Origin: Elusimicrobiota bacterium
GTDB taxonomy: Bacteria; Elusimicrobiota; Elusimicrobia; UBA1565; UBA9628
DNA length: 29,658 nt
Reading direction: 5' to 3'
Assembly: GCA_027319565.1 (NCBI GenBank)
Contig: DAHVNA010000028.1
Coordinates: 1 to 29,658 of the forward strand
A program made the position numbers and the translations under genes. Below are positions 705 through 21,353 of the stretch, piece by piece; position 1 is the stretch's first letter, and each line of letters begins with the position of its first letter. Under the pieces are notes generated by a model. That model did not search any database, was not told where the DNA came from, and saw only the letters and a program-made list of their open reading frames with translations.

Positions 705-1385
705 ATGCGCTATTTTTTGCTGCTTTTTTTATTCCTCTTTCTCATGAACGGTTTTTTTTCTTCATTTAAACCAACCAAAGCCTTACCGGATTTTTCTTCC
801 TCAAAACATCCGGTTGAAATACTGACGCTTCTTAATCTCGGTTTTGGTCGCCTTGCAGCCGACATCGAGATGGTTCGCCTGTTGATTTATTACGGTTCGA
901 GCGAGGCGATGGCCGACGATCTAAACCCTCCCAAAGATGTTCCTCTCTATCCGGGAATTTTTCCGCGGGCAAAAGAAATTCTCAGCCTGGACCCTTCTTT
1001 TAGCTATGTCCGCCTCTATGCGGCGGGGGCTTTGGCTTTTAACTTGGGTCGTCCGGATGAGGCCCTTCAACTGATGCGGGAAGGCTTGATTCTTGAACCA
1101 GACAATTCCAAATACAAGGCTTATATCGCCGCCATCGCTTTTTCCCAAAAGGGAGACCCAAAACAAGCTGTTGAGGCCTTAAGCCCGTATCTTCACTCTC
1201 CAAAGACCCCGAGCATGATCAAAAATATCGCCGCGTTTATTTATCTGCGGCTTAAAGAATGGCCGCAAGCCGCCGAGCTTTATCAGGAACTCCTCAACTC
1301 AAAAGACGCCGGATACCGAAAAGAAGCGAAGAAGATGTTGGGGAAAATTAAAAGGTATCATCATCTTAGGCGCTCAGACCAATGA
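705..1385 (+). CDS. Membrane-anchored TPR protein (PilG/XapA-like partner of the permease)
   Basis: N-terminal hydrophobic segment, RLAADIEMVRLLIYYGS motif, TPR-like helices (PDEALQLMREGL, PKQAVEAL, WPQAAELYQEL); 7 bp after the permease. Confidence 0.65.
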   Translation: MRYFLLLFLFLFLMNGFFSSFKPTKALPDFSSSKHPVEILTLLNLGFGRLAADIEMVRLLIYYGSSEAMADDLNPPKDVPLYPGIFPRAKEILSLDPSFSYVRLYAAGALAFNLGRPDEALQLMREGLILEPDNSKYKAYIAAIAFSQKGDPKQAVEALSPYLHSPKTPSMIKNIAAFIYLRLKEWPQAAELYQELLNSKDAGYRKEAKKMLGKIKRYHHLRRSDQ

Positions 1386-6322: not shown

Positions 6323-6973
6323 GTGGATCATTTCTTGGCAACCCACAAAGCCTTCCGCTCGATTTCGGCAAGCTCCATTGAAAACGCCTTGCCGTTGATT
6401 TCTCTGCGCCGCTACAAACGCGGAGAAGCGATATTTGAGGAGGGAAATCCGGCCCAGGCGGTTTATCTTTTGCGCTCGGGGCTGATCAAGGCCGCGAAAT
6501 ACTCGCCCAATTCAGACCTGGCGGCGATGGAGATCATCACTCCCGGGCAAATGTTCGGGATGATCGCAGTGATGGACAAAAAGAATTACCCCGTGAGCGC
6601 GTCTTCTCTCCAGGATTCGGAGGTCTATCGCATTCCCGAGCGCGTCTTTACCGAGTTTTTGGAAAAATACCCCGCCTTTTCCAAAGAAGTCTACTCCGCT
6701 ATAGGGAGCCATATCCGCCACGCGCAGACCCTTCGCGCTTTGTCCAAGGAACAGGTCGAACGCCGTATCGCCTGGGTTTTACTTTTACTTTCGCAGTCGC
6801 TGGGAAAAAACATGGAGCTGCGCCGTCAGGATATCGCGGAACTCGCCGCCTGCACGCCGGAAACGGCGATGCGAACCTTGGGCGATCTTAAGAGAAATAA
6901 AATCATTTCCTCCGGCTGGAAGCGCGTGACAATCCTTGATAGCGAACGCTTAAGCAAAATAGCCTCCTTTTAA
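6323..6973 (+). CDS. Crp/Fnr family transcriptional regulator
   Basis: cNMP-binding-like N-domain (IFEEGNPAQAVYLLRSG, PGQMFG) and C-terminal HTH (RQDIAELAACTPETAMR); GTG start. Confidence 0.92.
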   Translation: MDHFLATHKAFRSISASSIENALPLISLRRYKRGEAIFEEGNPAQAVYLLRSGLIKAAKYSPNSDLAAMEIITPGQMFGMIAVMDKKNYPVSASSLQDSEVYRIPERVFTEFLEKYPAFSKEVYSAIGSHIRHAQTLRALSKEQVERRIAWVLLLLSQSLGKNMELRRQDIAELAACTPETAMRTLGDLKRNKIISSGWKRVTILDSERLSKIASF

Positions 6974-6977
6974 AAAC

Positions 6978-7019
6978 CTGCGCCAGCGCATAGATTCTTT
7001 GTCGGCCGCATGATATCCT
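6978..7019 (+). promoter_or_regulatory. Class II Crp/Fnr-type promoter: CTGCG-CCAG-CGCAT box plus extended -10 TGaTATCCT
   Basis: Palindromic box 6978-6991 (centre 6984.5); -10 at 7014-7019 implies +1 near 7026, putting the box at -41.5; AGGAGG RBS follows. Confidence 0.75.
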
Positions 7020-7037
7020 AATGTTAGGAGGCTTTCC

Positions 7038-7457
7038 ATGAACACGCCTATCACGGCGGATGAAACCGTCGCTTCAATCGCCAAAAAGTCGCCTGAGCTC
7101 CATAAAATTCTCGTCCAATACGGGCTTGATATGTGTTGCGGAGGGGTTCATCCCCTGCGCTTGGCGGCCCAGGCCCACGGGGTTAATCTCAAGGAAATTT
7201 TATCCGCGCTTAATTCCTGCCTGGCTCCAGAGTCCGGGGGCAAGACTTATATTCTCGATGTTCATGGTTTAGAGCCGCCGGAGCCCATGGTTCAAATTCT
7301 CTCGAAACTTTCCGAGTTGGGGCCGAAAGACGCGCTTGAGGTCGAGCATTTCCGCGAGCCCGTGCCGCTTTACGCCCATTTGGAGGCGGCCGGTTTTGAG
7401 CATGAGATAGAAAAGCTCGCCGAGGGCCGCTATAAGCTTCGCATTTATAAAAAATGA
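7038..7457 (+). CDS. DUF542 (ScdA/RIC N-terminal) - DUF2249 fusion protein
   Basis: GLDMCCGG motif of the ScdA_N domain; LDVHGLEPPEPM...REPVPLY motif of DUF2249. Confidence 0.85.
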   Translation: MNTPITADETVASIAKKSPELHKILVQYGLDMCCGGVHPLRLAAQAHGVNLKEILSALNSCLAPESGGKTYILDVHGLEPPEPMVQILSKLSELGPKDALEVEHFREPVPLYAHLEAAGFEHEIEKLAEGRYKLRIYKK

Positions 7458-8785
7458 CAAGCGCCAAAGAGACGCCGCAACAGCCATCTTTTATTTTAAG
7501 CGGCTCCGCGCCGTTTCTTAAATCCGCGCCGCCGGCCTCTCTCCCGATGCGGCATTTCGCCTTCGCGGCCTTCGCTTTCTGGATATTTGCGGCGGAATTC
7601 GCGATTCACTCAACTCGCCTCTTGGGATTTGATTTCGAGGCTCTCTGGGTTTTGGGGTTGGCGCATTCCCTGACCCTGGGTTTTATCGCGATGACGATTT
7701 TAGGCGTGATGATCCAGATGTCTTCTGTCCTCTGGGAAATTCCGCTTCAGGCTCCGCATCGTATCATCAGTCTTTGCTGGTGGGGCTTTTCCTCGGGCCT
7801 TACTATTTTCGTTTATTTTTTGTGGAGCGACCGCGTTTTTTATTGGATTCCAGCCGCTTTGGCGGCTCTTTCTCTCACGGGATACATCGCTATTTTTATT
7901 CGAACCATGCTCGCGGCCAAGAAAATTGATTGGACGGGAAAACATTTAGCGGTCTCAATGGTCTATTTAATTTCTCTAGCCATTCTGGGAGTTCTCTTGA
8001 GTTATGACCGTGAGCGCGGCGTGATTTTCCCTGACCCTCAAGGCGCTTTGATCGCCCATATTCATCTGGCTCTGATTGGTTGGGTCTCTTTGAGCATTAT
8101 CGGAGTTTCTTATCGCCTGGTTTCGATGTTCGCGCTGTCCCATCTTGAATCAAAAACGCCGGGACGCCTAGCGCTTTTTCTCCTTAATGTCGGACTTATT
8201 GGCCTTGTTGGAGATTCTCTTTGGAACGCTCATCGTTTTTTGCCGTTGTGGGCCTCTCTTTTAAGCGCGGCCTATTTTATCTACGCCCTTCAGATGTTCC
8301 GAATATTCAAGGAAAGAATGAGGAAACTGGATCCGTCTCTCAGTTTCACGATATTGGCGCTTTTTGGCGGCGTCCTATGGTGCGCCTTGGGGCTCGGGCT
8401 TTCTTTCGGCTGGATCAAGGACAGCGTCCATGCGCGGGAAGCCTATATCGCTTCCGCGCTTTTAGGATGGGTAACGCCCTTTATTCTTGGAGAAATTCAT
8501 AAGATCGTTCCATTCTTAGTCTGGCTTCACGTTTATAGCCCGCAAAATTTTAAGCCGCCCGTCCGCGTCCCTAAAATCTCGGATTTAACCAGCCAAAAAC
8601 TCGCTTGGGGGGAATTGATCGCGGCTGTTTTCGCCTTGATTCTGGTTGTCCTTGGCTTTCTCATCAAGTCTCGCGGGATTCTCCGCCTGGGAGCTTTTTC
8701 CTGGCTTTTAGTCGCCACCCTTTACGCCATCAACACGATGATCAGCCTCAAGCACTTTTTATGGAAAGACCCGAGATGGAGCTGA
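7454..8785 (+). CDS. Polytopic membrane protein, DUF2249/DUF59-associated (NnrS / heme-copper oxidase subunit I-like superfamily)
   Basis: About 12 hydrophobic helices with intramembrane His motifs (AHSLTLGF, AHIHLALIGW) and KIVPFLVW; ATGA overlap with the upstream gene. Confidence 0.7.
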   Translation: MTSAKETPQQPSFILSGSAPFLKSAPPASLPMRHFAFAAFAFWIFAAEFAIHSTRLLGFDFEALWVLGLAHSLTLGFIAMTILGVMIQMSSVLWEIPLQAPHRIISLCWWGFSSGLTIFVYFLWSDRVFYWIPAALAALSLTGYIAIFIRTMLAAKKIDWTGKHLAVSMVYLISLAILGVLLSYDRERGVIFPDPQGALIAHIHLALIGWVSLSIIGVSYRLVSMFALSHLESKTPGRLALFLLNVGLIGLVGDSLWNAHRFLPLWASLLSAAYFIYALQMFRIFKERMRKLDPSLSFTILALFGGVLWCALGLGLSFGWIKDSVHAREAYIASALLGWVTPFILGEIHKIVPFLVWLHVYSPQNFKPPVRVPKISDLTSQKLAWGELIAAVFALILVVLGFLIKSRGILRLGAFSWLLVATLYAINTMISLKHFLWKDPRWS

Positions 8786-8819
8786 CTTAAAAAAAGGGGA
8801 CAGTCCCATTTTTTAAGTC
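8784..8819. terminator. Probable bidirectional terminator between convergent operons
   Basis: GACTTAAAAAAAGGGGA-CAG-TCCCATTTTTTAAGTC imperfect inverted repeat with A/T tracts on both sides. Confidence 0.6.
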
Positions 8820-9238
8820 CTGATTTTTGAAAAAATGTCCGCGACATCTTTATCCTCTAAAAATCGGTCGCAGGCGGGGTAGAGGACTTGTTCTTCCTTG
8901 GCGTTGTGGTGGCTTAAAATCGAAGCTAGCGCCTTCTCGTGAATTTTCGCGTCCGAAAGATCGGCTTTTTTAAGAGCTTGAATTACCGCGGCTTTTTCTT
9001 GGCGAATCTCTTTGTGCTCGATGAGCATGACGCGAATCGGGCCTTCTTTAAACATCGGATTTTTTTGAGCGAGAGCCGGAAATAAAATCGTCTCTTCCCA
9101 AACGATATGCCGCTCAAGCCTTCGGTCATACTCCTCGAAAATGCCGCGATATTCCGCCAATGCCTTAAAGCGGAGATCGAGAAATAGAGCGTCAATCTCG
9201 CGATGGTCTTTTTCAAAAAAATCGAAGATTTTTCCCAT
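8813..9238 (-). CDS. Hemerythrin (HHE) domain protein
   Basis: DHREID, RHIVWEETILFP, EHKEI, HHNAKEEQVLYP di-iron ligand pattern. Confidence 0.9.
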   Translation of the reverse strand: MGKIFDFFEKDHREIDALFLDLRFKALAEYRGIFEEYDRRLERHIVWEETILFPALAQKNPMFKEGPIRVMLIEHKEIRQEKAAVIQALKKADLSDAKIHEKALASILSHHNAKEEQVLYPACDRFLEDKDVADIFSKIRT

Positions 9239-9594
9239 TAAGCCTTTCCCTCCAGGTAATTTTTGAGCGCAACGGCATGGTTTATTTTTTGATCCTTGGC
9301 CGCGAATAAAAGCGTGACAGTTTGTTTTTTCGCGTGCTCGCGTAAGCTCTCAACCTCTTCTTTGAGATCCTTAAGCTCCGCGTGATAGCGCTTCTGAAAT
9401 TCCTCCCATTTTTCCGGGTCATGGTCAAACCATTGCCTCAGTTCTGTCGAGGGCGCAATGGATTTAAGCCACAAGCCCACTTTCGCTCTTTCCTTTGAAA
9501 CTCCCCTGGGCCAAAGCCGGTCCACCAAAACGCGAAAGCCGTCCTCTTTGGAATAATCATCATAAACGCGCTTAATCCGGATTTTTAATTTCAT
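9238..9594 (-). CDS. DUF488 family protein (YeaO-like)
   Basis: IKRVYD...DGFRVLVDRLWPRGVSKE...APSTELRQWFDHDPEKWEEFQKRY...NHAVALK. Confidence 0.92.
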   Translation of the reverse strand: MKLKIRIKRVYDDYSKEDGFRVLVDRLWPRGVSKERAKVGLWLKSIAPSTELRQWFDHDPEKWEEFQKRYHAELKDLKEEVESLREHAKKQTVTLLFAAKDQKINHAVALKNYLEGKA

Positions 9595-9601
9595 GACTCT
9601 A

Positions 9602-9943
9602 TTATAAACCCAAGGCGGCTCGCCCGTCCATCGTGATCATTCGAGGATTCCAAGGCGGATCCCAAATCAAGCTGATTTTGACTTCCTTATTTTTAAAGGC
9701 GGATTTAAGCGCTGATTCGGCCATCAAGACGATGCTTTCGCCCATTGGGCAATTACGAGTCGTCAAGGTCATCTTTAAATGCACCCAGTCTGCGGAGGCG
9801 TCTATTCCATAAATAAATCCGGCGCTGACAATATCGATTCCCACCTCAGGGTCAAGAACGGTTTCCAGAGCCGAGATCGCGCTTTGCACCAGCGCCTCCC
9901 GCTTAAGGGCCTCCGGAGGCGGCGCTTGGGAGTTTTCCTGCAT
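9602..9943 (-). CDS. DUF59 / SufT-PaaD-like metal-sulfur cluster assembly factor
   Basis: VLDPEVGIDIVSAGFIY, MTLTTRNCPM, WDPPWNP. Start set at MQENSQ (9943) to avoid overlapping the upstream gene. Confidence 0.88.
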   Translation of the reverse strand: MQENSQAPPPEALKREALVQSAISALETVLDPEVGIDIVSAGFIYGIDASADWVHLKMTLTTRNCPMGESIVLMAESALKSAFKNKEVKISLIWDPPWNPRMITMDGRAALGL

Positions 9944-9947
9944 GGGA

Positions 9948-10469
9948 TTAAACCTGTTTTTTATAAAAATAAACTTCCCAGTTTTCCTCTCCGATTTTTT
10001 TGGCCCAATGTTCAAAACCTTTTGATTCCAAGACTTTATATAAAGGAAAAGGCTCAAAGGAGACGCGCAAAAGCAAAACTTCCCCTTCTTGGACCTTGAG
10101 AGAGGCGGCCATTATTTTCGCGAAAGGCTCTTCGCCTTTTCGCAAATCCTCCCGCACATCAACGGAATGCGCGCGGGAATTTCCGATCCAATACGGCGCC
10201 TTTTCGCCGGCGTCAAGAGATGGGGCGCGTTTGTCGGGGGCGATTCGCTTAATCAACACGGACCATTTCTCCGGCCCTCTATCCGCCGCGGTCCATTCAA
10301 ATTCTCCCGCCCGTTCGGCCTTAAACTCATAAAAAAGCGGTTTGGGGTCGTGATCGTTGATTAATTTCAGCACGCCTCCAACCGGAAGATTCTCCCAGGT
10401 TTTAAAAATAAGCGGGTGCCTCTCTCTTGGCGAGACCCTGCAAACATCCAAGCAAACTTCGTCGCTCAT
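9948..10469 (-). CDS. Tandem DUF2249 domain protein
   Basis: LDVCRVSPRERHPLIF...INDHDPKPLFY and VDVREDLRKGEEPFAKIM...FEPFPLY. ATG at 10469 is preceded by AGGAGG. Confidence 0.88.
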   Translation of the reverse strand: MSDEVCLDVCRVSPRERHPLIFKTWENLPVGGVLKLINDHDPKPLFYEFKAERAGEFEWTAADRGPEKWSVLIKRIAPDKRAPSLDAGEKAPYWIGNSRAHSVDVREDLRKGEEPFAKIMAASLKVQEGEVLLLRVSFEPFPLYKVLESKGFEHWAKKIGEENWEVYFYKKQV

Positions 10470-10489
10470 ATCAGCCTCCTGTTTCAATT

Positions 10490-10531
10490 AGGATAACAGA
10501 AAGCTCGCGGCGTTAATATGCGCTAGAACAG
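10490..10531 (-). promoter_or_regulatory. Internal class II Crp/Fnr-type promoter (CTGTT-CTAG-CGCAT box, extended -10 TGtTATCCT)
   Basis: Same architecture and 19-nt box-to-TG spacing as the promoter at 6978-7019; box centre 10524.5, +1 near 10483. Confidence 0.7.
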
Positions 10532-10555
10532 GTTTTTTAAAATTTTGACAGGGAG

Positions 10556-11026
10556 CTACCAGGAAGAAAACCTGAGCGAGGCGGCGCAAAAGACGATCGC
10601 GGCCAAGATAAAAAGGTTGAGCGTTCCCCAAAACTTCATTTTCGCCGCTAAGGCTCTGATTCGGGCCGGATCCTTGGCTTCCATCATTTGCGGACCCCAA
10701 ACATAGGTGTGGAGAAGACTTAAAATGACCATCAAGGCGACTAAAACGAGTTTAACGCCCAAAATTTTTCCCCAGGGGCCTAAAAAAATTTCGGGAGTGT
10801 CTCGAATTTCCCAAAGCTTGAAAATTCCGGTCGCAAGAAGGGTCGCCCAGCATCCCCACATGACGATTTTAAAGCGCGCGCCGATTTCCCGGTAAATTTC
10901 AAAGCGGGCGGAGTCTTTCAAAAATTTTCTCAATATCGGCTGAACGGCTAAAGACATCGCGAAGGTTCCACCGACCCAAATAATCGCGGCCATCAGATGC
11001 AGCCAATGAATAAAGGCGTCCATCAA
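10556..11026 (-). CDS. CopD/DUF4149-like four-helix membrane protein
   Basis: HWLHLMAAIIWVGG, LATG, KILGVKLVLV...SLLH pattern. Confidence 0.75.
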   Translation of the reverse strand: MMDAFIHWLHLMAAIIWVGGTFAMSLAVQPILRKFLKDSARFEIYREIGARFKIVMWGCWATLLATGIFKLWEIRDTPEIFLGPWGKILGVKLVLVALMVILSLLHTYVWGPQMMEAKDPARIRALAAKMKFWGTLNLFILAAIVFCAASLRFSSW

Positions 11027-11925
11027 TTCCTCACCGGGACAAATTCATCCCAACCGAAGAGCTCGGGATATTCCTTCCACGGGCCCTCGCAGACAAAATC
11101 ATAGCGGCAGTTGCGGCATTTGTCGGTTTTGGATTTCCCCTCATCATGGCGATAGGCCGTATAATCGGCGATCACCGCCTCCGCGTCATAGACTGCGGTG
11201 TGCGGGATGATTTTTTCGGCGACATAATTTTCATAGCCTTTCATGAGACAATAAGGGATGGCCTCCGTCATACAGCATATGCCGGCTTTAATTCCGATGT
11301 CAAGGCCTTTAAAAATATAGGGCATGATTTCGGATTTTTTCGGAACGATTTTATTTTTATTTTTGTCTGCTTCGCCCAAAATATGGACAAAGGCGAATTG
11401 ATACTGATTGACGCCTAAAGAGACCAGGAGTCTCGCGATGTTCGGCAAATCCTTATAATTGAGCTCGGTAATGACCGTGTTTGTCAGTATCCGCTGCCCC
11501 AGTTTTCTCAGATTTCGGATTCCGCCGATGACCTGGACAAAGGCCCCCGGGACTCGGGTTAGTTCATCATGAATTTGGGGCACGGACCCGTGAAGGGCGG
11601 GGGAAAACTCGTTGGCCCCGGCGTCTATTAATTCCCGGCAAAAGTCCTCGTAAAAAAATCGGCGTCCGTTGGATTGAATTTGAATGATTTCATAGCCCAA
11701 ATCGCGGGCAAGGCGAATGGCTCCAAGAAGACCCTTGTGCACGGTCGGTTCTCCGCCGGTCAAAACCAAACTCTTGGCGCCCTTTAAACGGCCTTCTTCC
11801 AAGCTCGCCTTGATTTGATCCGCCGATTTGGGGCCAAACTTGCTTCTTTTATCTCCCTGAACGCAAAAATGGCAGCGGTTATTGCAGGCAAAGCCGAGCT
11901 TGAGATCGATTCGTTCGGCGCTCAT
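11023..11925 (-). CDS. Uncharacterised radical SAM protein with C-terminal Cys cluster
   Basis: CNNRCHFC, LTGGEPT, IQSNG, IPYC, and C-terminal CRNCRYDFVCEG. Confidence 0.85.
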   Translation of the reverse strand: MSAERIDLKLGFACNNRCHFCVQGDKRSKFGPKSADQIKASLEEGRLKGAKSLVLTGGEPTVHKGLLGAIRLARDLGYEIIQIQSNGRRFFYEDFCRELIDAGANEFSPALHGSVPQIHDELTRVPGAFVQVIGGIRNLRKLGQRILTNTVITELNYKDLPNIARLLVSLGVNQYQFAFVHILGEADKNKNKIVPKKSEIMPYIFKGLDIGIKAGICCMTEAIPYCLMKGYENYVAEKIIPHTAVYDAEAVIADYTAYRHDEGKSKTDKCRNCRYDFVCEGPWKEYPELFGWDEFVPVRN

Positions 11926-12899
11926 GCGCTCATGCGGGAATTTTTAAGAGCGTTTTCCGCGATCCAATCTTGAGTTCGGCAGGAACAATAATAGACCGAC
12001 ATTTTAAACTTGTGGATCAAGGCGTAGAGAAGATGGCCGAAGACCGTTTCCTCGCTTTTGGCGACGGGAGACCAGGTCAGTCTAAAATCGGGCGAACCGC
12101 TTGAAGAGGCCTGATAGCCGCGTTTTTGTAAAGAATCAATATTGGCCGCGCTCGCGAAAAGCTCATGCAAAATGAGCTGTTTAACGCCTAAATTATCAAG
12201 ATGATGCATGATGTCCCGAACGGGTTTTTTATCTTCAGGGACTGCCGGCATTTCAATTTCGACATCGCTGAAAACTTCTCTGGCGAGCTCGACCGGAGAG
12301 GCGTCATAAGCGCGGGCGGCCAAATCAATCCTCAATCCTGAAACTCCGGCGGCTTTCAGTTCCTTTAGAATTGGCAGGCTTAGGCGATCGGCATTGGTGT
12401 AAAGGTCAATCCAAAGCTCGGGGCCAAAATTTTTTTTGAGAGCCGCCAGGATCTCAAAAACGCGTTTGGGAAAAAGCAGGGGCTCGCCGCCTCCAATCCC
12501 GACGCTTTTAACTCCCAAATTTTTGAGGCTGAGAATGGCTTCTTCAAGAGACTTAACCTCTCGCCCGTGAACGCTTAAGACATCCTTGCGGGGTTTGGGA
12601 TTGAAACAAAAAAAACAGTCGCGGTTGCAAAGGGTAGTGACGCTTAAGTGGCTTGCGCATCCCTCAAGACAAGGCTTGCAGCCTTCCGAGAGTTCCCGCG
12701 TATAAAGCGTGCCGCGCTCGGGCCATCCCTTAATCCCGTGGGCTTTAAGCAGACGCAAAAACCGCGCTTTTCGGCTCTGGGCCATTTCAGGATGACGTTC
12801 CGGAGGCAGAACTTCCCTGCGGGCGAGCCCCAAGGCATAGCGTTCAAAGGTTTCAGAGAGAGGCTGGGTCATGGTTTCATTTCGTTGAGACTCGGTCAT
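11922..12899 (-). CDS. Radical SAM protein, COG2108-like (extra N-terminal CxxC)
   Basis: LSEGCKPCLEG upstream of CNRDCFFC, GGGEPL, LYTNA, C-terminal YYCSC. An alternative start at 12872 is possible. Confidence 0.8.
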   Translation of the reverse strand: MTESQRNETMTQPLSETFERYALGLARREVLPPERHPEMAQSRKARFLRLLKAHGIKGWPERGTLYTRELSEGCKPCLEGCASHLSVTTLCNRDCFFCFNPKPRKDVLSVHGREVKSLEEAILSLKNLGVKSVGIGGGEPLLFPKRVFEILAALKKNFGPELWIDLYTNADRLSLPILKELKAAGVSGLRIDLAARAYDASPVELAREVFSDVEIEMPAVPEDKKPVRDIMHHLDNLGVKQLILHELFASAANIDSLQKRGYQASSSGSPDFRLTWSPVAKSEETVFGHLLYALIHKFKMSVYYCSCRTQDWIAENALKNSRMSA

Positions 12900-13914
12900 A
12901 TACGCAGGCCGGTTCTTCGGCTAAAACGTTGTTATAAGCGAAATAGGCTCTGGCGCGGCAGCCGCCGCAGACGTTTTTAAAATCACAGGCGCCGCAACGG
13001 CCTTCCAAAAGTTCCGGATTTCGGAAATCCTCAAAGAGTTTAGAATCCGTCCAAATTGTCTTAAGCGGAGTCTTTTTGATATTGCCGGAAGATAGGGGAA
13101 GATATCCGCATGGAAAAACATCGCCTTTGTGGGAAACAAAACACATGTGGATACCAGCGAGACATCCTTTTCGGTCATCAGTCGAAATAGGGACAGTTTC
13201 CATTTCCGCTTCAACGCGGTAATAATGCGGAGCGCAGATGGCTTTGATGGGAAGTTCTCCGGGCCTGTCTTTTTTTGCGACCCATTTGAGCCATTCTTCC
13301 ACTTCTTCCGGCAAAAGCATATCGGAATCGGCGATTTCGACCCCGCAGCCGACTGGAACCAAAAGAAAGAGATAAAGAGCCGAAGCGCCTATGCTTTTTG
13401 AAAGATGATACACTTCCGTAATTTCGCCGACGTTTTTCTTGGTCATCGTGAAATTAACTTGGACCTTGATTCCCGCGTTTTTAAGGGCGAGAAACCCCTT
13501 AAGAGCCTTGGCGAAATTTCCAGATCCGCGGAAAGCGTCATGAGTTTTGGCGACGGCCCCATCTAAAGAAATCGAGGCGTAGTAAACTCCGGCCTTGGCT
13601 AATTTTTCGGCGACCCTGTCATTGACCAGCGTGCCATTGGTCGCAAGCCCCGAAGGGAGGCCCCGGCTTTGGGCGTATTCGATGAGTTCGAAGATGTCTT
13701 TTCTGAAAAGCGGTTCGCCGCCTGAAAAAATCAAGACCGGGCGGCCCATCTCGGAAAGCTGATCGATAAAGGACTTTGCTTCCTTGGTCGTCAACTCATC
13801 GGGAGAGCCTTTGACCAGAACATCGGTTCTTCGGCAGTGAATGCAGCGGAGATTGCAGCCGGCCGTCACTTCCCAATAAACCCGCCTCAGCGTCGCGGCC
13901 AGAGGCGGGTTCAT
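12877..13914 (-). CDS. Radical SAM/SPASM protein, AhbD/NirJ family (most like heme b synthase AhbD)
   Basis: YWEVTAGCNLRCIHCR, FSGGEPL, LVPVGCG, CAPHYYR, GCLAG..CFVSHKGDVFPCGYL, CGACDFKNVCGGCRARAY. Start set at MNPPL (13914). Confidence 0.8.
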   Translation of the reverse strand: MNPPLAATLRRVYWEVTAGCNLRCIHCRRTDVLVKGSPDELTTKEAKSFIDQLSEMGRPVLIFSGGEPLFRKDIFELIEYAQSRGLPSGLATNGTLVNDRVAEKLAKAGVYYASISLDGAVAKTHDAFRGSGNFAKALKGFLALKNAGIKVQVNFTMTKKNVGEITEVYHLSKSIGASALYLFLLVPVGCGVEIADSDMLLPEEVEEWLKWVAKKDRPGELPIKAICAPHYYRVEAEMETVPISTDDRKGCLAGIHMCFVSHKGDVFPCGYLPLSSGNIKKTPLKTIWTDSKLFEDFRNPELLEGRCGACDFKNVCGGCRARAYFAYNNVLAEEPACVYDRVSTK

Positions 13915-13927
13915 GGGATATCTCAAA

Positions 13928-14530
13928 CTAAGAGTGTTGAGCCGGAGACGAAGCGGGAGCGCTCGAAGCCCCGGAAGCGGTCTTTTTAGCGGAGGAAGAC
14001 GTTCCGAAAATCCGGGCATAATCCTTGGGATAATTCTGTTTAAAGCTCTTTAAAAGCTTTTCTCGATTCGCTTCCCAGGCTTCTGCGTTGGCGCCCGTCT
14101 TTCGGACTTTGGAATCATAAACCAAGAACTCAAATATCTTTTTGCCTTCCGAAGGCCGGATATTCGATCCCGGTTTGGACATCATCTTGTGAACGTATCG
14201 GCTCCAGATTTTTTGGCCGATTTGCCAAACCAAGGGATTTTTGAACATTTCAGGATTGGTCTTTTTGTCCGCCGCCTGCTCATCCGCAGTCAATTGCAAA
14301 AATTGCGAGTTAATCGGGCGGGCGATGGTGTGGCAAGCCGAGCACTTGTTGAGAAACAAGTGATAATACATCTTCATTTTGGGCGGATAATGCGAGACGT
14401 CAATGGAAGTGGATCCGAAATCATTCGGATAAACGCCTCCCGACTTGTCCTGAGAATAGGCCTGCGCAAAAAGCGTTCCGCTGATAATGGCGGCCCCGCC
14501 GATGATTACGGCTATTTTTTTTATGTTCAT
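13928..14530 (-). CDS. Secreted monoheme c-type cytochrome (resembles the PscC/c-551 C-terminal domain)
   Basis: Sec signal peptide, KCSACH, distal WSRYVHKMMSKPGSNI Met-ligand motif, GGAG RBS. Confidence 0.8.
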   Translation of the reverse strand: MNIKKIAVIIGGAAIISGTLFAQAYSQDKSGGVYPNDFGSTSIDVSHYPPKMKMYYHLFLNKCSACHTIARPINSQFLQLTADEQAADKKTNPEMFKNPLVWQIGQKIWSRYVHKMMSKPGSNIRPSEGKKIFEFLVYDSKVRKTGANAEAWEANREKLLKSFKQNYPKDYARIFGTSSSAKKTASGASSAPASSPAQHS

Positions 14531-14560
14531 GTCAGTCTCCTTACTTTTTTATTTATTCCG

Positions 14561-16000
14561 TCAAAATCCAACTTCAAACTGAAGGCTTAAGCGATTTCCC
14601 ATCGGCAAAAGGGCCGCAATATTTGAATTGACCCCTCCGTAGTTAGCGGTCCCGCCTCCGCCGAATCGGTTCGTATCCACCGTATACTCAAGGAAACCCT
14701 TGAAATTCGGCGCGAAATAATGAGCCACCTGGGCTGTCACATAGTTGAATCGCTCGGTTCCGTTCCATAAAGTCATCCAGTTTTCTCTAATGAGAGGGAC
14801 TAAGAAGGCATAATCATGATAATCCCGCTTATAGGTATAGAAAAGTTCGACATAAGCGGCTTGATCGCTTTCGGCTGCGCCTAAAAGCGCGTCCGAATCA
14901 TGGGCGTAGGCATAAACCGCCCGGGCGTAGAAGTCATCATGTTCCCAAAGCGCGTCAAAACCTCCGCGAATATCTTGGACATAGTGGTTCGCAATTGGAG
15001 TCGTCCCGCCACCAGGAAGATTTCCAGTGGATCCTGGGGCGCCGGCATCGGTCACTCCACCGCTTTGGCCGTATTGGCCAAAGGTTCCAAGCATCAGGCC
15101 ATCTCCGGTGTCATAGGCAAAACGCGCATAAGCGTTTCCGGCTCCGCCTTGACCGGTGTTATTGGATGAAGGATCTTTGGAATACCCCAGCGAGTAATAG
15201 ACGAAAGAGGGGCTTGCGCTAGAAATATGAACTTGGCCATAAATTTCCCCGGTTTGGGTTTGCGTGTTAAGCGGAAACCCCGAAAGATAGGCTTGCCCTT
15301 CCATTAAGAAGTCCGTCGAACGGTTGGCGATGGTCGGGCTTTCCGCGGAAGTGATGGTCTGATAAGGATCATCGACGAAAAACCCGCGGCGCATAAGAAC
15401 GACGTTGTAAAGCAAAGAGGGATGATATCCGAACCTTAAATCTCCCATGCTCGGGTTAAACCCAGCGGCTTGATTAGCGTCCATTTCCCCAAAATAAGAG
15501 ACGTGTTTGGCCGCGTCTCCGCCCGCGATAAACATATCGATATCGTTAATGGGCTGAAATTCCGGGCCATTGAGAGGGCCTGTGCCGCCCATTTGAGATC
15601 CAGTCGTCGCGGTTCCGTGTCCGGTATCAAGAGGGCGGGAACGCACGATGACGGCCCAAGGCATGGTCGCTTCCGTCCACAGCTCTTGATTCTGGCTTTG
15701 AAGAACGCCATCGGTCGATCCCCTGGTGCGCACGTATCCGTTCATTTTAAATTGCCGCCCGTAAGCGTTTAACGTCGGGTAATCAGCATGACATTGAGAG
15801 CAGCTCATTTTATATTTGCGGGCGAAAGCCGGAAGACCGAGAGCTTGGCTAACGCCATCCGGACGGACGGGGCACAAGTGCCTTAAGCTGTGAAAATAAG
15901 GCGGCAAAAGCCACAAAAGACCCAAGATAGCGGCAGAAACCGCTATCTTGCGGCTAAAACTCTTAAACGTCTTGGCGCTCCCATCACTTCCGTCCGTCAT
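14561..16000 (-). CDS. Cyc2-like monoheme cytochrome c - outer membrane porin fusion
   Basis: LPAFARKYKMSCSQCHADYPTLNAYGRQFKMNGY matches the PxFAR...CxxCH...PxL...GRxFK..GY motif; aromatic/Gly-rich beta-strand body; C-terminal beta-signal LSLQFEVGF. Confidence 0.82.
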   Translation of the reverse strand: MTDGSDGSAKTFKSFSRKIAVSAAILGLLWLLPPYFHSLRHLCPVRPDGVSQALGLPAFARKYKMSCSQCHADYPTLNAYGRQFKMNGYVRTRGSTDGVLQSQNQELWTEATMPWAVIVRSRPLDTGHGTATTGSQMGGTGPLNGPEFQPINDIDMFIAGGDAAKHVSYFGEMDANQAAGFNPSMGDLRFGYHPSLLYNVVLMRRGFFVDDPYQTITSAESPTIANRSTDFLMEGQAYLSGFPLNTQTQTGEIYGQVHISSASPSFVYYSLGYSKDPSSNNTGQGGAGNAYARFAYDTGDGLMLGTFGQYGQSGGVTDAGAPGSTGNLPGGGTTPIANHYVQDIRGGFDALWEHDDFYARAVYAYAHDSDALLGAAESDQAAYVELFYTYKRDYHDYAFLVPLIRENWMTLWNGTERFNYVTAQVAHYFAPNFKGFLEYTVDTNRFGGGGTANYGGVNSNIAALLPMGNRLSLQFEVGF

Positions 16001-16554
16001 TTATTTTTTCTCCTTTTATTGACGTAATTGATCCTGCTTTTTAGCCCTTCTAACTCTAATTCTAGCTTTTTATCCAACACCCTGATAAGATCAAAAGCGG
16101 TAATGACGCCGACGACTGCGCTCTTTTCCGTTACAAAAACGCGATGGATGCGCTTTTTGAGCATTTCTTTAACGACTTTGTGAAGAGAGGTTTCCTTGTT
16201 CACGGAAAAAAGTTTTGGAGTCATCCATTCGCTCACGGCATCCTCTTCGCTTTCGGCATGAAAACCCACTCCCTGAGCGATTGCTTCCAGCGCTCCAAGA
16301 GTTCTCAACGCGCCTCTATCCTCGCCCGAAGAGGCGCAGGCGACATGATCCCGCTCATAATGAGTAATATCGGTCTTGGTTAAAACTCCAACGGGAAAAG
16401 AGCCTCCGTTTAAGACCGGGGCTCCGCTGATATTTTTATCCAGAAAAACGGAAGCGGCATGCTGCATCGTGTCTTTAGAAGAAATCGTGATTACGGGCGA
16501 GACCATTACATCCTCGGCCCGAAGTTTGAAGTCACCCGCGTTGGTTTTTCTCAT
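15997..16554 (-). CDS. CBS domain pair protein
   Basis: AEDVMVSPVITI...ISGAPV...VGVLTKTD and VSEWMTP...IHRVFV...VGVITAFD. Confidence 0.9.
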   Translation of the reverse strand: MRKTNAGDFKLRAEDVMVSPVITISSKDTMQHAASVFLDKNISGAPVLNGGSFPVGVLTKTDITHYERDHVACASSGEDRGALRTLGALEAIAQGVGFHAESEEDAVSEWMTPKLFSVNKETSLHKVVKEMLKKRIHRVFVTEKSAVVGVITAFDLIRVLDKKLELELEGLKSRINYVNKRRKNK

Positions 16555-17000
16555 TTCGACGCTCCGACAATATCCTCTCTAGCAACAAAATGACTTGTTT
16601 TCTGAGGCAAGAATGAATTCCCAAGAGAGAAATCTCTTTTTTTTCTGAGAGAAGACAAAACCTTGGCCAGCACATAAGAAGGGCAACTGGGCGGCGGGGA
16701 TGTCTTTGAATCGCAATTACAGAGTAAAACAAGTTTGCGGCGCAAGGAAAGAAGGGCTAGGGGCTTCATCAAGTTAAGAGCGTAATCGGAGTTTAACTCC
16801 TTTTCATATGCCGCTTGAAATTCTTTTTGAGTCAATATCCCAAGATCCAGGCGCTTGCGCAAAACGTAACTGGGAGACAATCCCGGAATCCAGGCATCCA
16901 TTTCTTTTAGGGCATTTCCATGCGGACGCTTCCAAGAAGGCAGAATCTTATAACCGTTTCGATGTTGTCCCAGTTTTTCGACGCTGATTCCGCTCTCCAT
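16551..17000 (-). CDS. Divergent DUF488-like protein
   Basis: MDAWIPGLSPSYVLRK...EFQAAYEKEL...LVLLC pattern parallels DUF488; ATGA overlap with the CBS gene. Confidence 0.6.
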   Translation of the reverse strand: MESGISVEKLGQHRNGYKILPSWKRPHGNALKEMDAWIPGLSPSYVLRKRLDLGILTQKEFQAAYEKELNSDYALNLMKPLALLSLRRKLVLLCNCDSKTSPPPSCPSYVLAKVLSSLRKKRDFSLGNSFLPQKTSHFVAREDIVGASK

Positions 17001-17006
17001 GAGATT

Positions 17007-17049
17007 AGTATAGCGCGCATGGATAAGTCTGTTCCATGACCTAGGTCAT
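17007..17049 (-). promoter_or_regulatory. FNR-like box ATGAC-CTAG-GTCAT plus -10 TATACT (leaderless promoter of the cyc2-like operon)
   Basis: Perfect 14-bp palindrome 17036-17049 (centre 17042.5); TATACT at 17012-17007, 6 nt before the ATG at 17000. Confidence 0.75.
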
Positions 17050-17066
17050 AATTAAAAAAATATTTT

Positions 17067-17732
17067 TTAGCGGCTGAGGGCGGCCAAGGATTGGGGGTCT
17101 TGGATGAGAATTTTCCCTCGGGAAGAAGAAAGAATTTTTTGATCTTCCAGATTTTTAAGGGCACGGAAGGTCGTCTCTAAAGTGGCGCCGACAAGCTCGG
17201 AGAGCTCTTTTTTGGTAAACGGGATGGTCTGTCCGTAGACCTGGCAGAGTCTCGTTAAAATCGAGGCAATTCTTTTTGGAACCGCTTCTTGACCTAGGCA
17301 TCTTAAGCCTTGCACGTCTTTAAGTCTTTCGGAACACAAAGAACAGAGCCCGCGGACAAACCCGCCGTTTCTTGCGTAGCAATCTAGGAAAATTCTTTCT
17401 GGAATTAAAATGACATGGCTTTCCTCGGCGCAAACGGCAGTGCAGGGATAACTTCGGTTATTAGAGCCCAAGCGGCACAAGGTGCCGAAAATTTCTCCAG
17501 GGGCTAGACTTTCAAGGGCGAAAGACTTGCCGTCGGAAGTGAATTTGAATACTTGAAGCCTTCCTTTATATAAAACCCATACTCCTTGGGCGGGCTCGCC
17601 TTCATTGTAAATCGTGTCGCCCTTTTTAAAAGTTTTGATCTTGGAAACTAAAACCAAGGAGGAGAGTTCTTGGGGAATCAGATTCTTAAATGGGTCTATA
17701 GATGAGAGAAATTTTTGAATCTCGGAGGCCAT
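17067..17732 (-). CDS. Crp/Fnr family transcriptional regulator, Cys-rich
   Basis: IYNEGEPAQGVWVLYKG, PGEIFG, HTH KKELSELVGATLETTFR; 8 Cys. TATAAT lies 5 nt before the ATG. Confidence 0.92.
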   Translation of the reverse strand: MASEIQKFLSSIDPFKNLIPQELSSLVLVSKIKTFKKGDTIYNEGEPAQGVWVLYKGRLQVFKFTSDGKSFALESLAPGEIFGTLCRLGSNNRSYPCTAVCAEESHVILIPERIFLDCYARNGGFVRGLCSLCSERLKDVQGLRCLGQEAVPKRIASILTRLCQVYGQTIPFTKKELSELVGATLETTFRALKNLEDQKILSSSRGKILIQDPQSLAALSR

Positions 17733-17755: not shown

Positions 17756-18016
17756 TTATAAGTCATCTAAAGGGGGGAGATTGAGTTTACGAATGGCGTT
17801 ATTGATCATGAGTTTAGCGCTGACATAGGGGATGGGCCCGCAAACGGTTTTAATGGCCGAGAGGTATTTCTTTATATCTTGAGGAGAGTGCATAACGACT
17901 GTTCCGTCCGGGAAAATTCTCAACCCCGAGACGGATTGGATTTGGCTGAGCTTGTTTTGATAGAGATCCAAGACGACAAGGGCGTGCTCTTTGACTGCAT
18001 CGCTGTAGTTAGCCAT
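17756..18016 (-). CDS. Hypothetical protein (86 aa)
   Basis: ATG-start ORF that fills the gap, co-oriented with the crp gene; no motif recognised. Confidence 0.55.
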   Translation of the reverse strand: MANYSDAVKEHALVVLDLYQNKLSQIQSVSGLRIFPDGTVVMHSPQDIKKYLSAIKTVCGPIPYVSAKLMINNAIRKLNLPPLDDL

Positions 18017-18640: not shown

Positions 18641-18712
18641 GCCGGGGTAGCTCAACGGTAGAGCAGCTGCTTCGTAAGCAGCAGGTTGTGGGTTCGAATC
18701 CCATCTCCGGCT
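18641..18712 (+). tRNA. tRNA-Thr (anticodon CGT), CCA not encoded
   Basis: Cloverleaf: GCCGGGG/CTCCGGC acceptor, GCTC/GAGC D-stem, GCTGC-TTCGTAA-GCAGC, GTGGG-TTCGAAT-CCCAT. Confidence 0.95.
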
Positions 18713-18813
18713 TTTTTTATTGGAGTGATTCGAACCCACTTTGGCGGTTGAACTCGGCCTTTTGTGGAGCCTTTGGCGTTCGGCTGAGTTCCTTCTTAAA
18801 TGACACGGCTTGT

Positions 18814-18996
18814 GGCGGTGGATACTGCCTCGGCCGTGGACTTGTGGATAAGTCGTCGCCTTTGACTTACCCACAGGGTCCACAGCCGTTTGGACATCGC
18901 CCCTGTAACGAATAAAGACAGGGCGGCGGGGCGTTCCGCCGACGTTCCACCGCGCTTAAAGCCGCGCGGTCCGCGATGCCCACAGTCTCCACCGCC
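18814..18996. repeat. Nested multi-stem inverted-repeat element containing DnaA-box-like motifs
   Basis: Stems 18814-27/18983-96, 18831-54/18864-88, 18891-900/18973-82, plus three small inner hairpins; TGTGGATAA sits in stem 2. Confidence 0.75.
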
Positions 18997-19314
18997 CGGC
19001 GGCGGTTCCTTCTCTCTTTTTCCAACGACTCTTCGCGTCTCTTTTTCACTCTCTCCATTTTTACAGTCGCGCCTTCTCTCAAGTCACCAGGAGTGAAGAC
19101 CGCCGCGCTGCGGCATAAACGGTCACCCCCTCCGACAATCCAAAAATTCGGCCCAACCCCCGCCGCGCCCCAAATTTTTCGGACAACTCGCGTGCCGCGA
19201 GGCCGCCAGCCCGACTCCATCGGGGGCGGTTGCCAGGTGGGGTCCCACCATTTAATCCTCGCTTAGCGGCTCTACCTCGGCGACTTTCGCCCTCCGGGCA
19301 GGCGGAGGCGCGAC

Positions 19315-19890
19315 ATGAAAAACTACAAGAGCTTCAAAAGAGACGCGAAGAGAAACGCCGGACAAACGGCGAGCCGGGAGAAAACGATCGAAAAACTGAT
19401 TGACGAGAATCGCGAGAGGGCATCTGCGTTCGCCTGCAATCTGACTAAAAGTTTAGATGAGGCGCGGGACTTGGTCCAGGAGGCGAACTTTCGGGTTCTG
19501 AGGAGTTGGAATCAATACGACCCCTTGCGTTCGTTTTCAGCCTGGTATCTGACCATCATACGGAACGCTTTTCTGGATGACCGGGAAAGCGCGGGGAAAA
19601 TTAAGACCGTGCCCTTGTGCGGTTTCGTTGAAGAGGGGGGCGGAATGAGTCCGGCGGATTTCTTGGCCGACGGGGAAATGAGCGCGGAGGAGCGTCTGGA
19701 AAAAGAGGAGGCGGCGCGGGAGACAAGGGAGATTCTCAAGGCCTTGCAAAAACCGCATCGAGACGTCTTGACTCTTTGCGACATGGAAGGAAGAAACTAC
19801 GCGGAGGCGGCGAAAATAACGGGCGTTTCCATCGGGACGATTAAATCGAGGCTGAGCCGCGCGAGAAAAGCGTTTCGGCGGCGAATATAA
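19315..19890 (+). CDS. ECF-family RNA polymerase sigma factor
   Basis: Region 2 ARDLVQEANFR...FSAWYLTIIRN; region 4 EGRNYAEAAKITGVSIGTIKSRLSRAR; GGAGG RBS. Confidence 0.92.
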   Translation: MKNYKSFKRDAKRNAGQTASREKTIEKLIDENRERASAFACNLTKSLDEARDLVQEANFRVLRSWNQYDPLRSFSAWYLTIIRNAFLDDRESAGKIKTVPLCGFVEEGGGMSPADFLADGEMSAEERLEKEEAARETREILKALQKPHRDVLTLCDMEGRNYAEAAKITGVSIGTIKSRLSRARKAFRRRI

Positions 19891-19910
19891 ATAAAAGGAG
19901 AAATAAAGCG

Positions 19911-20318
19911 ATGAATAAATTAGGCGAGACAAGACGCGAGGACGGAAGCGAGGAAATTATTTATGCCTACACGAGAGAACAGGCGATTGAGGACGGGGAA
20001 CTGGTCGATATAACGCCCTTGTCCAGGGAAGCGGGGTTTAAATACCCCGTGGCCGTGACGAGGGCGGTTTGGGATATTTTGGAGCCCGCCGATGAACTTA
20101 AAGCCGTCGGCCAAAGCGCCACGGGCCGAACCTGGGACATGCTCCAGGTCTTGCGCTGGGCCATGCGGAGAAGCGGGATAAGCGACCGCATCGCCTTCGC
20201 TCCCTTGTTTTTGACGGAGAGAAAAGGCCGAATAGAACCCGTCAGCCTTTGGGCGGTCTGCGGCCCGGGAGACGACAGCCAAGCCGTCATAACGATTATG
20301 ACGGAGGGGGAAGACTAA
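19911..20318 (+). CDS. Plasmid/ICE-associated hypothetical protein (DUF6573-like)
   Basis: IIYAYTREQAIEDGELVDIT...AGFKYPVAVTRAVW...GRTWDML...CGPGDD..AVITIM..ED; AAGGAG RBS. Confidence 0.75.
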   Translation: MNKLGETRREDGSEEIIYAYTREQAIEDGELVDITPLSREAGFKYPVAVTRAVWDILEPADELKAVGQSATGRTWDMLQVLRWAMRRSGISDRIAFAPLFLTERKGRIEPVSLWAVCGPGDDSQAVITIMTEGED

Positions 20319-20324
20319 AAAACC

Positions 20325-20348
20325 GGAGGCCCCCGCAAGGGGGCCTCC
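20325..20348. terminator. Strong hairpin / probable terminator
   Basis: GGAGGCCCCC-GCAA-GGGGGCCTCC perfect 10-bp stem; the U-tract is present only for the minus direction. Confidence 0.65.
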
Positions 20349-20415
20349 ACCCCTAAATTCCGCGAAAATTATTTTTGATAATTTTCGTCCGTAATTTTGA
20401 TAAAATTTCGACTCT

Positions 20416-21111
20416 ATGACTCGCGCCAAGGTCCTAATTGTCGAAGACGAAACGCCGACTCAAATCTTATACAAGGATTTCCTCGAGAGCGCTCCCTGCA
20501 AGGATGAGTTCGCCTTGAGCTTTGTTTCAACGGGCGAGGAGGCTCTGCGGTATTTGAAAGAAAACCAGGCGGAACTCATCATTTTAGATTGGACGCTGCC
20601 GGGAATCTCCGGCTTGGAAACGCTGGCGCGCATCCGTCAAAAAGATCGCCTCGCCTTGATTATCATGGCGACGGCGCATACCGATGAGAAAGATATAGAC
20701 GCCGCCTTGGAAAATGGGGCCGACGACTATTTGACGAAGCCCTTCGCCATGCCGCTGTTTTTATCTCGCCTTCACGCCCTTAAGCGCAGGCGCGAACTGG
20801 ATTTAGGAAATCAGGCCATCTATGCGCTTGGGGATTTGCGCGTGGACGCGCGAAACGGAATCATTCTCAAGGGCGATCTCCGCATCGAACTCTCCGGCAA
20901 GGAACGCGATCTATTGGCGCTTTTCTTGCGTCGCCCCAACATGGTCCATTCCGCCGCTCACTTGATGGAAGCTCTCTGGGGACATTCAATGGAGGGTCGA
21001 AATATTTTGGAGCGGCACATTAGTTCTTTGCGAAAAAAGCTTGGCTCTCAATGGGCGGGGCGCCTTAAATCCAAATACGGAATCGGCTATTGCCTTGAAA
21101 TTCCCTCTTAG
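20416..21111 (+). CDS. OmpR/PhoB-family response regulator (orphan)
   Basis: VEDE, LDWTLPGISG, MATA, GADDYLTKPF, winged helix LSGKERDLL...HISSLRKKLG...YGIGY. Confidence 0.93.
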   Translation: MTRAKVLIVEDETPTQILYKDFLESAPCKDEFALSFVSTGEEALRYLKENQAELIILDWTLPGISGLETLARIRQKDRLALIIMATAHTDEKDIDAALENGADDYLTKPFAMPLFLSRLHALKRRRELDLGNQAIYALGDLRVDARNGIILKGDLRIELSGKERDLLALFLRRPNMVHSAAHLMEALWGHSMEGRNILERHISSLRKKLGSQWAGRLKSKYGIGYCLEIPS

Positions 21112-21288: not shown

Positions 21289-21353
21289 TACTCGCGGTTG
21301 GCCTTGCTCAAATAGTCGGAGGTCGGAAGATTCTCTTGGAGGGTTTTCGCTTC

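Follow-up and report, generated by a model that had tools for sequence, protein, structure and literature searches.

A Cyc2-like cytochrome-porin operon of Elusimicrobia behind a conserved Crp/Fnr-type box: a candidate low-oxygen respiratory regulon

An operon for a Cyc2-like fused cytochrome-porin lies on the minus strand (17000-10556) of a 29,658-nucleotide (nt) stretch of DNA from an Elusimicrobiota bacterium (assembly GCA_027319565.1, contig DAHVNA010000028.1, positions 1-29,658, forward strand); this whole stretch is called the window below. The genome to which it belongs (G000, 92% complete) is one of a genus set of six (G000-G005), and RNA runs from the study of the closest-matching samples carry the label mine drainage. 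The operon begins with a DUF488-N3a protein (16551-17000; PF22751, 37.4 bits, cut-off 27) and a stand-alone CBS-pair protein (15997-16554; PF00571). These are followed by the porin (14561-16000; 479 amino acids [aa], C-terminal Phe), an exported, SorB/PscC-like monoheme cytochrome c (13928-14530), and three radical SAM enzymes (rSAMs). The rSAMs are rSAM-1, an AhbD-like radical SAM/SPASM enzyme (12877-13914); rSAM-2, a COG2108-like enzyme (11922-12872, or with a start at 12899) with additional invariant residues Cys65, Cys68 and Cys296; and rSAM-3, an HxsC4/HxsC-like enzyme with C-terminal Cys226, Cys270, Cys273 and Cys279 (11023-11925). The last gene encodes a CopD/DUF4149-like four-helix membrane protein with invariant His6, His9 and His105 (10556-11023; PF05425).

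A first-pass annotation of the letters alone had described eight packed minus-strand genes with ATGA overlaps, and all eight open reading frames (ORFs) are indeed present. ATGA overlaps occur at the DUF488/CBS, CBS/porin and rSAM-2/rSAM-3 junctions, a TGATG overlap joins the rSAM-3 and CopD-like genes, and the remaining gaps are 30, 13 and 4 nt. Profile matches uphold the families named there (DUF488-N3a, CBS, AhbD-like Radical_SAM plus SPASM, CopD), and its "Cys-tail rSAM" is the HxsC4/HxsC-like enzyme (NF038332, 165 bits, cut-off 500). The same gene order is intact in five of the six genus genomes (G000, G001, G002, G004, and G005). In the sixth (G003, 93% complete), the porin is found only as a Qrc-linked copy, and there is no close match for rSAM-1, rSAM-2, rSAM-3, or the CopD-like gene. 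Since the genes beyond the CopD-like gene differ in three of the five operon-bearing genomes, the downstream boundary is correctly placed at CopD. The CopD-like gene tracks the porin, being present in 11 of 61 genomes, nine of which also have a close porin; a HemJ-like (UPF0093) role for it found no support (PF03653, 7.9 bits, cut-off 34.2; best of six members E 0.002). One RNA-library contig spans the porin-cytochrome junction (7 differences in 217 letters), although it may be DNA and is no proof of a single transcript. Three mine-drainage RNA runs of the same study yielded 11 short contigs from one run and none from the other two, which leaves the rSAM genes uncovered and proves nothing. The main texts of the open-access literature gave neither a description of this operon arrangement nor a paper joining Cyc2 with ahbD.

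The porin has a single CxxCH, the heme c motif CSQCH near its N-terminus (residues 67-71; 15788-15802, minus strand), which is present in 76/76 aligned rows. The criteria given for Cyc2 are AXPXFAR[QK][TY] before the CxxCH and PXL after it (10.1101/228056); the porin reads GLPAFARKY...CSQCH...PTL, with G at the first motif position, where 70 of 76 homologues have A. At 479 aa it also exceeds the length of the Cyc2 barrel criterion (16 strands, at least 365 aa), and its structure model (77 sequences, pLDDT 82) contains 16 long strands and resembles 16-strand porins (Foldseek E 2e-11 to PorB; VIA Z up to 24.0, root-mean-square deviation 3.6 over 312 residues). Searches of Pfam, NCBIfam and PDB sequences gave no match (PDB sequence search, 0 at E 1). 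Judged by these sequence and modeled-fold criteria, the protein is a Cyc2-like fused cytochrome-porin, and the earlier proposal of a Cyc2-type fusion with a partner cytochrome is borne out. The partner itself matches SorB (E 0.029) and a PscC domain (E 0.035) only weakly; its Met116 is invariant and is the likely sixth ligand. Like the Cyc2/Cyt572 Fe(II) oxidases, as described in 10.1101/228056 and PMC13741234, the porin has PxFARKY five residues upstream of its one heme motif and PxL downstream, a periplasmic cytochrome c gene comes next, and relatives lie beside genes for alternative complex III (ACIII) or Qrc. Unlike them, it has a leader of about 50 residues with an invariant Cys-Pro, its partner is SorB/PscC-like rather than Cyc1/Cyt579, and its operon, preceded by a Crp/Fnr box, includes two orphan rSAM genes besides an AhbD-like one. 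Cyc2-like genes have already been reported in a mine-drainage Elusimicrobiota metagenome-assembled genome (PMC8357290).

The porin leader consists of a hydrophobic helix to residue ~33 and an A-x-A-type site before L56, with a conserved 20-residue insert between them. Cys43-Pro44 (W-x-x-P-P-x8-C-P-x-R; 15869-15874, minus strand) lies ahead of the predicted cleavage site and is found in all 75 of the 75 rows that have residues there, together with Arg46 (75/76) and Trp30 (73/75). This invariant Cys-Pro is a new feature of the porin leader, and its conservation equals that of the heme motif. Elsewhere, Cys-Pro motifs are known to bind heme. Among distant homologues, C-P/T occurs in 25 of 101 complete leaders (median leader length 53 versus 27.5), and one Elusimicrobia porin (G090) lacks the motif. 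No paper on Cys-Pro in a Cyc2 signal peptide was found in the open-access literature. A role of the leader as a substrate tag for rSAM-2/3 is disfavored, as the leader also occurs in G013, where neither enzyme was found. A second Cyc2 in the window's genome (C37:8173-13831; L038) is more canonical (AIPSFARQTG) and lies with a diheme cytochrome and ResB/CcsA genes; it shares the Cys-Pro leader with the window porin and is otherwise divergent, with only the first ~90 residues aligning.

Directly upstream of the operon, and missing from the earlier reading of ORFs, is the gene for a Crp/Fnr-family regulator (17067-17732, minus strand; PF00027 and PF13545), a candidate for the cognate regulator of the box that lies between the two. 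This box is a palindromic operator, TATGAC-N4-GTCATR (ATGACCTAGGTCAT at 17036-17049; operator 17035-17050, minus strand), centered at -42.5 from the predicted transcription start, the position of a class II activator. The -10-like hexamer TATACT (17007-17012, minus strand) is kept in 5/5 genus copies, as is its spacing from the box, and predicts that transcription begins at the DUF488 start codon or close to it. The box departs from the FNR consensus at two positions, weak evidence when taken alone (46 two-mismatch matches in the window versus 32 expected). However, it lies 49 nt before the DUF488 start in all five operon-bearing genus genomes and in G028, and the strict pattern has 10 strand-matches in G000 against ~1 expected and none for the reversed control. 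The strict sites number six in G000, four in G001, eight in G028, eight in G033, and three in G021, with zero for the reversed control in all five. In G028 and G033, which belong to another genus and whose regulator is 60% identical, the porin, the cytochrome, DUF488, the rSAM-1 orthologue, and a TatD-rSAM/rSAM-2 unit each have a box of their own in front. The box also precedes coxII-coxI in four of the five scanned genomes (G000, there behind a bacteriohemerythrin, G001, G028, and G033). Box conservation and enrichment over the control thus support the Crp/Fnr-type control that had been proposed from an Fnr-type box.

The regulator gene precedes the box and DUF488 in genera g1 and g17, and its five internal Cys are invariant in 8/8 aligned orthologues. 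It is not an FNR member, since it scores 30 bits against the cut-off of 228 for NF008365 and has no N-terminal Cys cluster. As in FNR, FixK and Dnr regulons, a TGA-N6-TCA core palindrome stands at about -42 and the targets include an oxidase, hemerythrin, and a heme enzyme. Unlike in those regulons, the box is TATGAC-N4-GTCATA rather than TTGAT-N4-ATCAA, and the regulator, with its five internal Cys, fails the FNR models. From its sequence and position, the regulator is the likely sensor for the box, and we infer oxygen to be its signal. A second Crp/Fnr gene lies elsewhere in the window (6323-10536), with DUF542/DUF2249, a 443-aa membrane protein, and a DUF2249-SufT-DUF488-hemerythrin unit. 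Both units of this region are preceded by AAAACCTGYKCYAGCGCATA (6973, plus strand; 10536, minus strand), the only two such sites in the genome; the block is absent at this place in G001, G002, and G004 and looks like a separate stress regulon. An Rfam scan of the window gave tRNA-Thr as its sole match, and a generic σ70/terminator scan was uninformative.

For rSAM-1, the best NCBIfam model is AhbD (TIGR04545, full length), and the protein has the Fe-S motifs described for AhbD heme b synthase, CX3CX2C and the C-terminal CX2CX5CX2CX17C (PMC10114771). A NirJ/heme d1 identity was rejected (TIGR04051, 193 bits, cut-off 515). The window's genome has adjacent hemE and hemY genes and a ChdC-family gene (the C-terminal half of PF06778), and a CbiX-type chelatase, a candidate coproporphyrin chelatase, lies 3 kb from the latter (C111:21956-26040; L108). 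The AhbA/B family was not found in G000 or in any of the 61 genomes, and a siroheme route to heme was rejected on this ground. ChdC is matched in 48 of the 61; of the 13 genomes without a match, the seven with the strongest AhbD-like matches were examined and the other six left out. All seven (L229-L235) carry ahbD-hemE-hemH-hemY, with hemH confirmed for one. Because these ChdC-lacking relatives have such an operon, their gene content fits AhbD-like enzymes acting as coproheme decarboxylases in this order, in a coproporphyrin-type route that dispenses with AhbABC. Heme-operon AhbDs of the same order also fall below the TIGR04545 cut-off (391-426 bits; 6/6 scanned), and the rSAM-1 clade is sister to them in a quick tree (22 rows). 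Given HemE-HemY-ChdC, the lack of an AhbAB match, and sister enzymes in the heme operons of ChdC-lacking relatives, the most likely role of rSAM-1 is an oxygen-independent synthesis of ordinary heme b. In Haloferax volcanii, ChdC serves aerobically and AhbD anaerobically, and ahbD lies among respiratory genes (PMC5746218); by analogy, rSAM-1 beside ChdC fits such an aerobic/anaerobic split. The AhbD-like enzyme of this operon differs from the described systems in that the AhbA/B siroheme-route family was not found in the 61 genomes, its score is below the model cut-off, and it belongs to a distinct, long-stemmed clade.

The other two rSAMs present a different picture. JGI names of rSAM-2 relatives agree with the COG2108 label; fold searches returned generic radical SAM folds only (viperin-like, SkfB, NifB; TM about 0.5), and an Atlas search likewise found generic rSAM clusters only. 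At the level of whole genomes, neither enzyme is associated with the porin. Of the order's 101 genomes, 67 have rSAM-2, 20 with the porin and 47 without a porin match, and seven of the 27 porin genomes lack it (20/27 versus 47/74, kin not independent; Fisher p 0.35, descriptive only). Close orthologues of rSAM-3 occur in 34 of the 61 genomes, 10 with the porin (six adjacent) and 24 without (10/19 versus 24/42, again among non-independent kin). The two enzymes lie within 1 kb of each other in 9 of the 30 genomes having both. Within 8 kb of rSAM-2 (39 loci, five of them from one genus), the neighbors are rSAM-3 (11), an RlmN-like rSAM (11), the cytochrome (8), the porin (7), CBS (7), a TatD-linked rSAM (6), and a B12 rSAM (6); in three further genomes, rSAM-2 is on the porin contig within 30 kb. 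The rSAM-2 tree follows genera, and a single origin of the porin-adjacent copies is rejected in the careful tree (p 0.014). Orthologues of rSAM-3 elsewhere are mostly in multi-rSAM, His-Xaa-Ser-type clusters, with HxsB within 8 kb in 6 of 19 rows. The link of rSAM-2/3 to the porin is still not nil: they share its regulation in a second genus and lie next to it in a third. The first-pass annotation had supposed that the module carries its own cofactor-making enzymes, and that a failure of the rSAMs to co-occur with the cytochrome genes would speak against this. Such a failure is largely what is seen for rSAM-2 and rSAM-3 (47/67 and 24/34 genomes without the porin), despite adjacency or co-regulation in some genera; a role for them as modifying enzymes of the module finds no support, and heme supply by the AhbD-like enzyme is supported.

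Several observations accompany these families. On contig C78 of the window's genome (21984-40354; L114, L115), about ten radical SAM genes lie with HxsB, HxsD, and a 319-aa orphan gene; such multi-rSAM clusters occur widely in the order, at times next to a prepilin-peptidase-like gene. An RlmN-like rSAM family (no Pfam match), a B12-rSAM, a thioredoxin-reductase-like gene, and tyrosine phenol-lyase are repeatedly found next to rSAM-2 or behind the same box (L075, L077, L086, L090, L271), and could possibly form an undescribed anaerobic pathway.

The porin is present in 27 of the 101 genomes of the order. For its neighborhoods, 28 porin rows were mapped, fragments included, and the 6-kb counts are lower bounds, as contig ends and unclustered genes go uncounted: the SorB-like cytochrome family is within this distance in at least 19 rows, ACIII/Qrc genes in at least 12, and AhbD-clade or TIGR04053 genes in at least nine. 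The window porin groups within the Qrc-linked copies from its genus, and its closest paralogues (79% and 72% identical) are in Qrc/ACIII operons that contain no rSAM gene. Porins located in regulatory islands fall into more than one clade (27 rows, 5 changes, approximately unbiased test p 6e-55), in a tree from which one row without the motif was dropped and whose groups were named from neighborhoods after a smaller tree had been seen. The window porin is probably a relocated duplicate of the porin found in the Qrc/ACIII operon of relatives.

With moderate confidence, we read the operon as the compacted form of a low-oxygen respiratory regulon in Elusimicrobia of acid mine drainage, which serves inward electron transfer and heme supply and contains no cytochrome-tailoring cassette. 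In this scheme, falling oxygen would lead the Cys-containing Crp/Fnr protein to bind TATGAC-N4-GTCATR and switch the operon on. The heme-porin and the periplasmic monoheme cytochrome would then conduct electrons into the cell, with Fe(II) as the most likely donor and the heme-copper oxidase under the same box or ACIII as the destination. rSAM-1 would finish heme b from coproheme without O2 or H2O2, backing up ChdC, and rSAM-2 and rSAM-3 would be oxygen-labile enzymes of the same regulon with other substrates, sharing the promoter and tailoring no cytochrome.

A number of results weigh against this scheme. Two of the boxes in the window's genome stand before RND efflux genes and one is inside an ORF. 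The box-linked oxidase is CoxA-like; such enzymes are A-type oxidases, which are usually of low affinity. The genome already has its second, more canonical Cyc2 with a diheme cytochrome. rSAM-1 scores 399 bits against the TIGR04545 cut-off of 500, and a long stem (1.25) separates it from the heme-operon clade; the clade of rSAM-1 follows the distribution of the porin (7/9 genomes, kin not independent), a pattern that would suit a specialized role as well. Without oxygen, heme synthesis would still be held back at HemY, whose step requires O2, and a PF00762 ferrochelatase was not found in the 92% complete genome. Finally, rSAM-2 is within 5 kb of the porin in seven genomes of two genera, rSAM-3 is adjacent to it in six, and a single origin of porin-adjacent rSAM-2 is not rejected in the quick tree (p 0.12).

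The direction of flow could instead be outward. In the absence of oxygen, electrons from the quinol pool would pass via Qrc/ACIII to the periplasmic cytochrome and the porin heme and on to extracellular Fe(III), and the canonical Cyc2 on C37 would do the oxidizing. The anaerobic-type members of the regulon (AhbD-like enzyme, B12-rSAM, tyrosine phenol-lyase), the ancestral link of the porin to a Qrc-like complex, and the very presence of a second Cyc2 would suit such a division of labor, and the function of the more divergent Cyc2 homologues has been called the most uncertain (10.1101/228056). The box before the heme-copper oxidase in four of five scanned genomes, however, points to O2 as acceptor, and the tested Cyc2 proteins are oxidases (PMC13741234). 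Outward flow is unlikely, if the best placed of the alternatives.

Slightly less probable still is a dedicated tailoring cassette, in which at least one of the three rSAMs would make a modified heme or modify the porin or cytochrome (the Cys-Pro leader being one possible site), as a high-potential iron oxidase of the Cyt572 kind would need. The predicted mature N-terminus of the porin, LPAFARKYKM, resembles that of Cyt572, YPGFARKYNF (PMC13741234), and Cyt572 is said to bear an unusual heme (10.1101/228056). In addition, the cytochrome-porin-rSAM-2(-rSAM-3) arrangement recurs in genus g10, the long-stemmed rSAM-1 clade tracks the porin, AhbD-clade or TIGR04053 genes recur near porins as counted above, and HxsB/HxsC of the HXS anti-phage system (HxsB/HxsC/HxsD/HxsA; PMC13128918) act on an exported protein, which they process and modify; rSAM-3 and the multi-rSAM clusters of its orthologues, some with HxsB, bear a likeness to this system. 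Unlike that system, the operon has no detectable HxsA, HxsB or HxsD, the HxsB and HxsD of the genome being on contig C78, and no His-Xaa-Ser repeats were found (four scattered HxS in the porin, none in the cytochrome). Close paralogues of the porin do without rSAMs in their Qrc operons, as does the porin of G003; the Cys-Pro leader persists in G013; and neither rSAM-2 nor rSAM-3 shows a genome-level association with the porin. Among 80 metagenome Cyc2-like loci (kept from 571; 37 of at least 8 kb), rSAM-2 occurs in none and an AhbD/TIGR04053-type gene in one. An equally doubtful extension holds that the AhbD-clade enzyme, together with the His-containing membrane protein and possibly rSAM-2/3, would make a non-standard heme or modify the Cys-Pro leader, with Cys-Pro serving as a heme-responsive gate or chaperone for porin export and maturation.

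The least probable proposal, that the regulator senses NO or thiol/metal stress instead of O2 and that the operon is a loosely assembled set of stress genes in which gene order counts for little functionally, draws on the regulator's distance from FNR, the DUF2249/SufT/hemerythrin block that follows the operon, boxes before RND efflux and a peroxidase-related gene, and heavily shuffled island gene content, but a different motif precedes that block, which three relatives lack at this place, and the core of the regulon (oxidase, hemerythrin, cytochromes, AhbD-like enzyme) is respiratory in two genera.

Beyond these genes, the window contains an open-ended ORF of at least 2774 aa (21336-29657, minus strand; 57-60% GC), ahead of which (18641-21111) lie tRNA-Thr, an ECF sigma factor, DUF6573, and a response regulator; together they look like an island with a giant surface protein. 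An 86-aa gene of no known family (17756-18016), 81% identical in G002, lies upstream of the regulator. At 1382-4003, a WD40 propeller is fused to a caspase-like domain (873 aa), and a homologue follows the CopD-like gene in another locus (L247).

A regulator, a site, and a regulon can now be proposed for the divergent Cyc2 of a mine-drainage lineage not yet in culture, which would link this protein to low-oxygen respiration, and the function of uncertain Cyc2 homologues becomes testable through this regulon. Elusimicrobia would appear to swap ChdC and AhbD within a coproporphyrin-type heme route, and two orphan radical SAM families gain a physiological setting. Were tailoring to prove true after all, the operon would be the first to offer candidate enzymes for the heme, so far unexplained, of the Cyt572-type iron oxidases of acidophiles.

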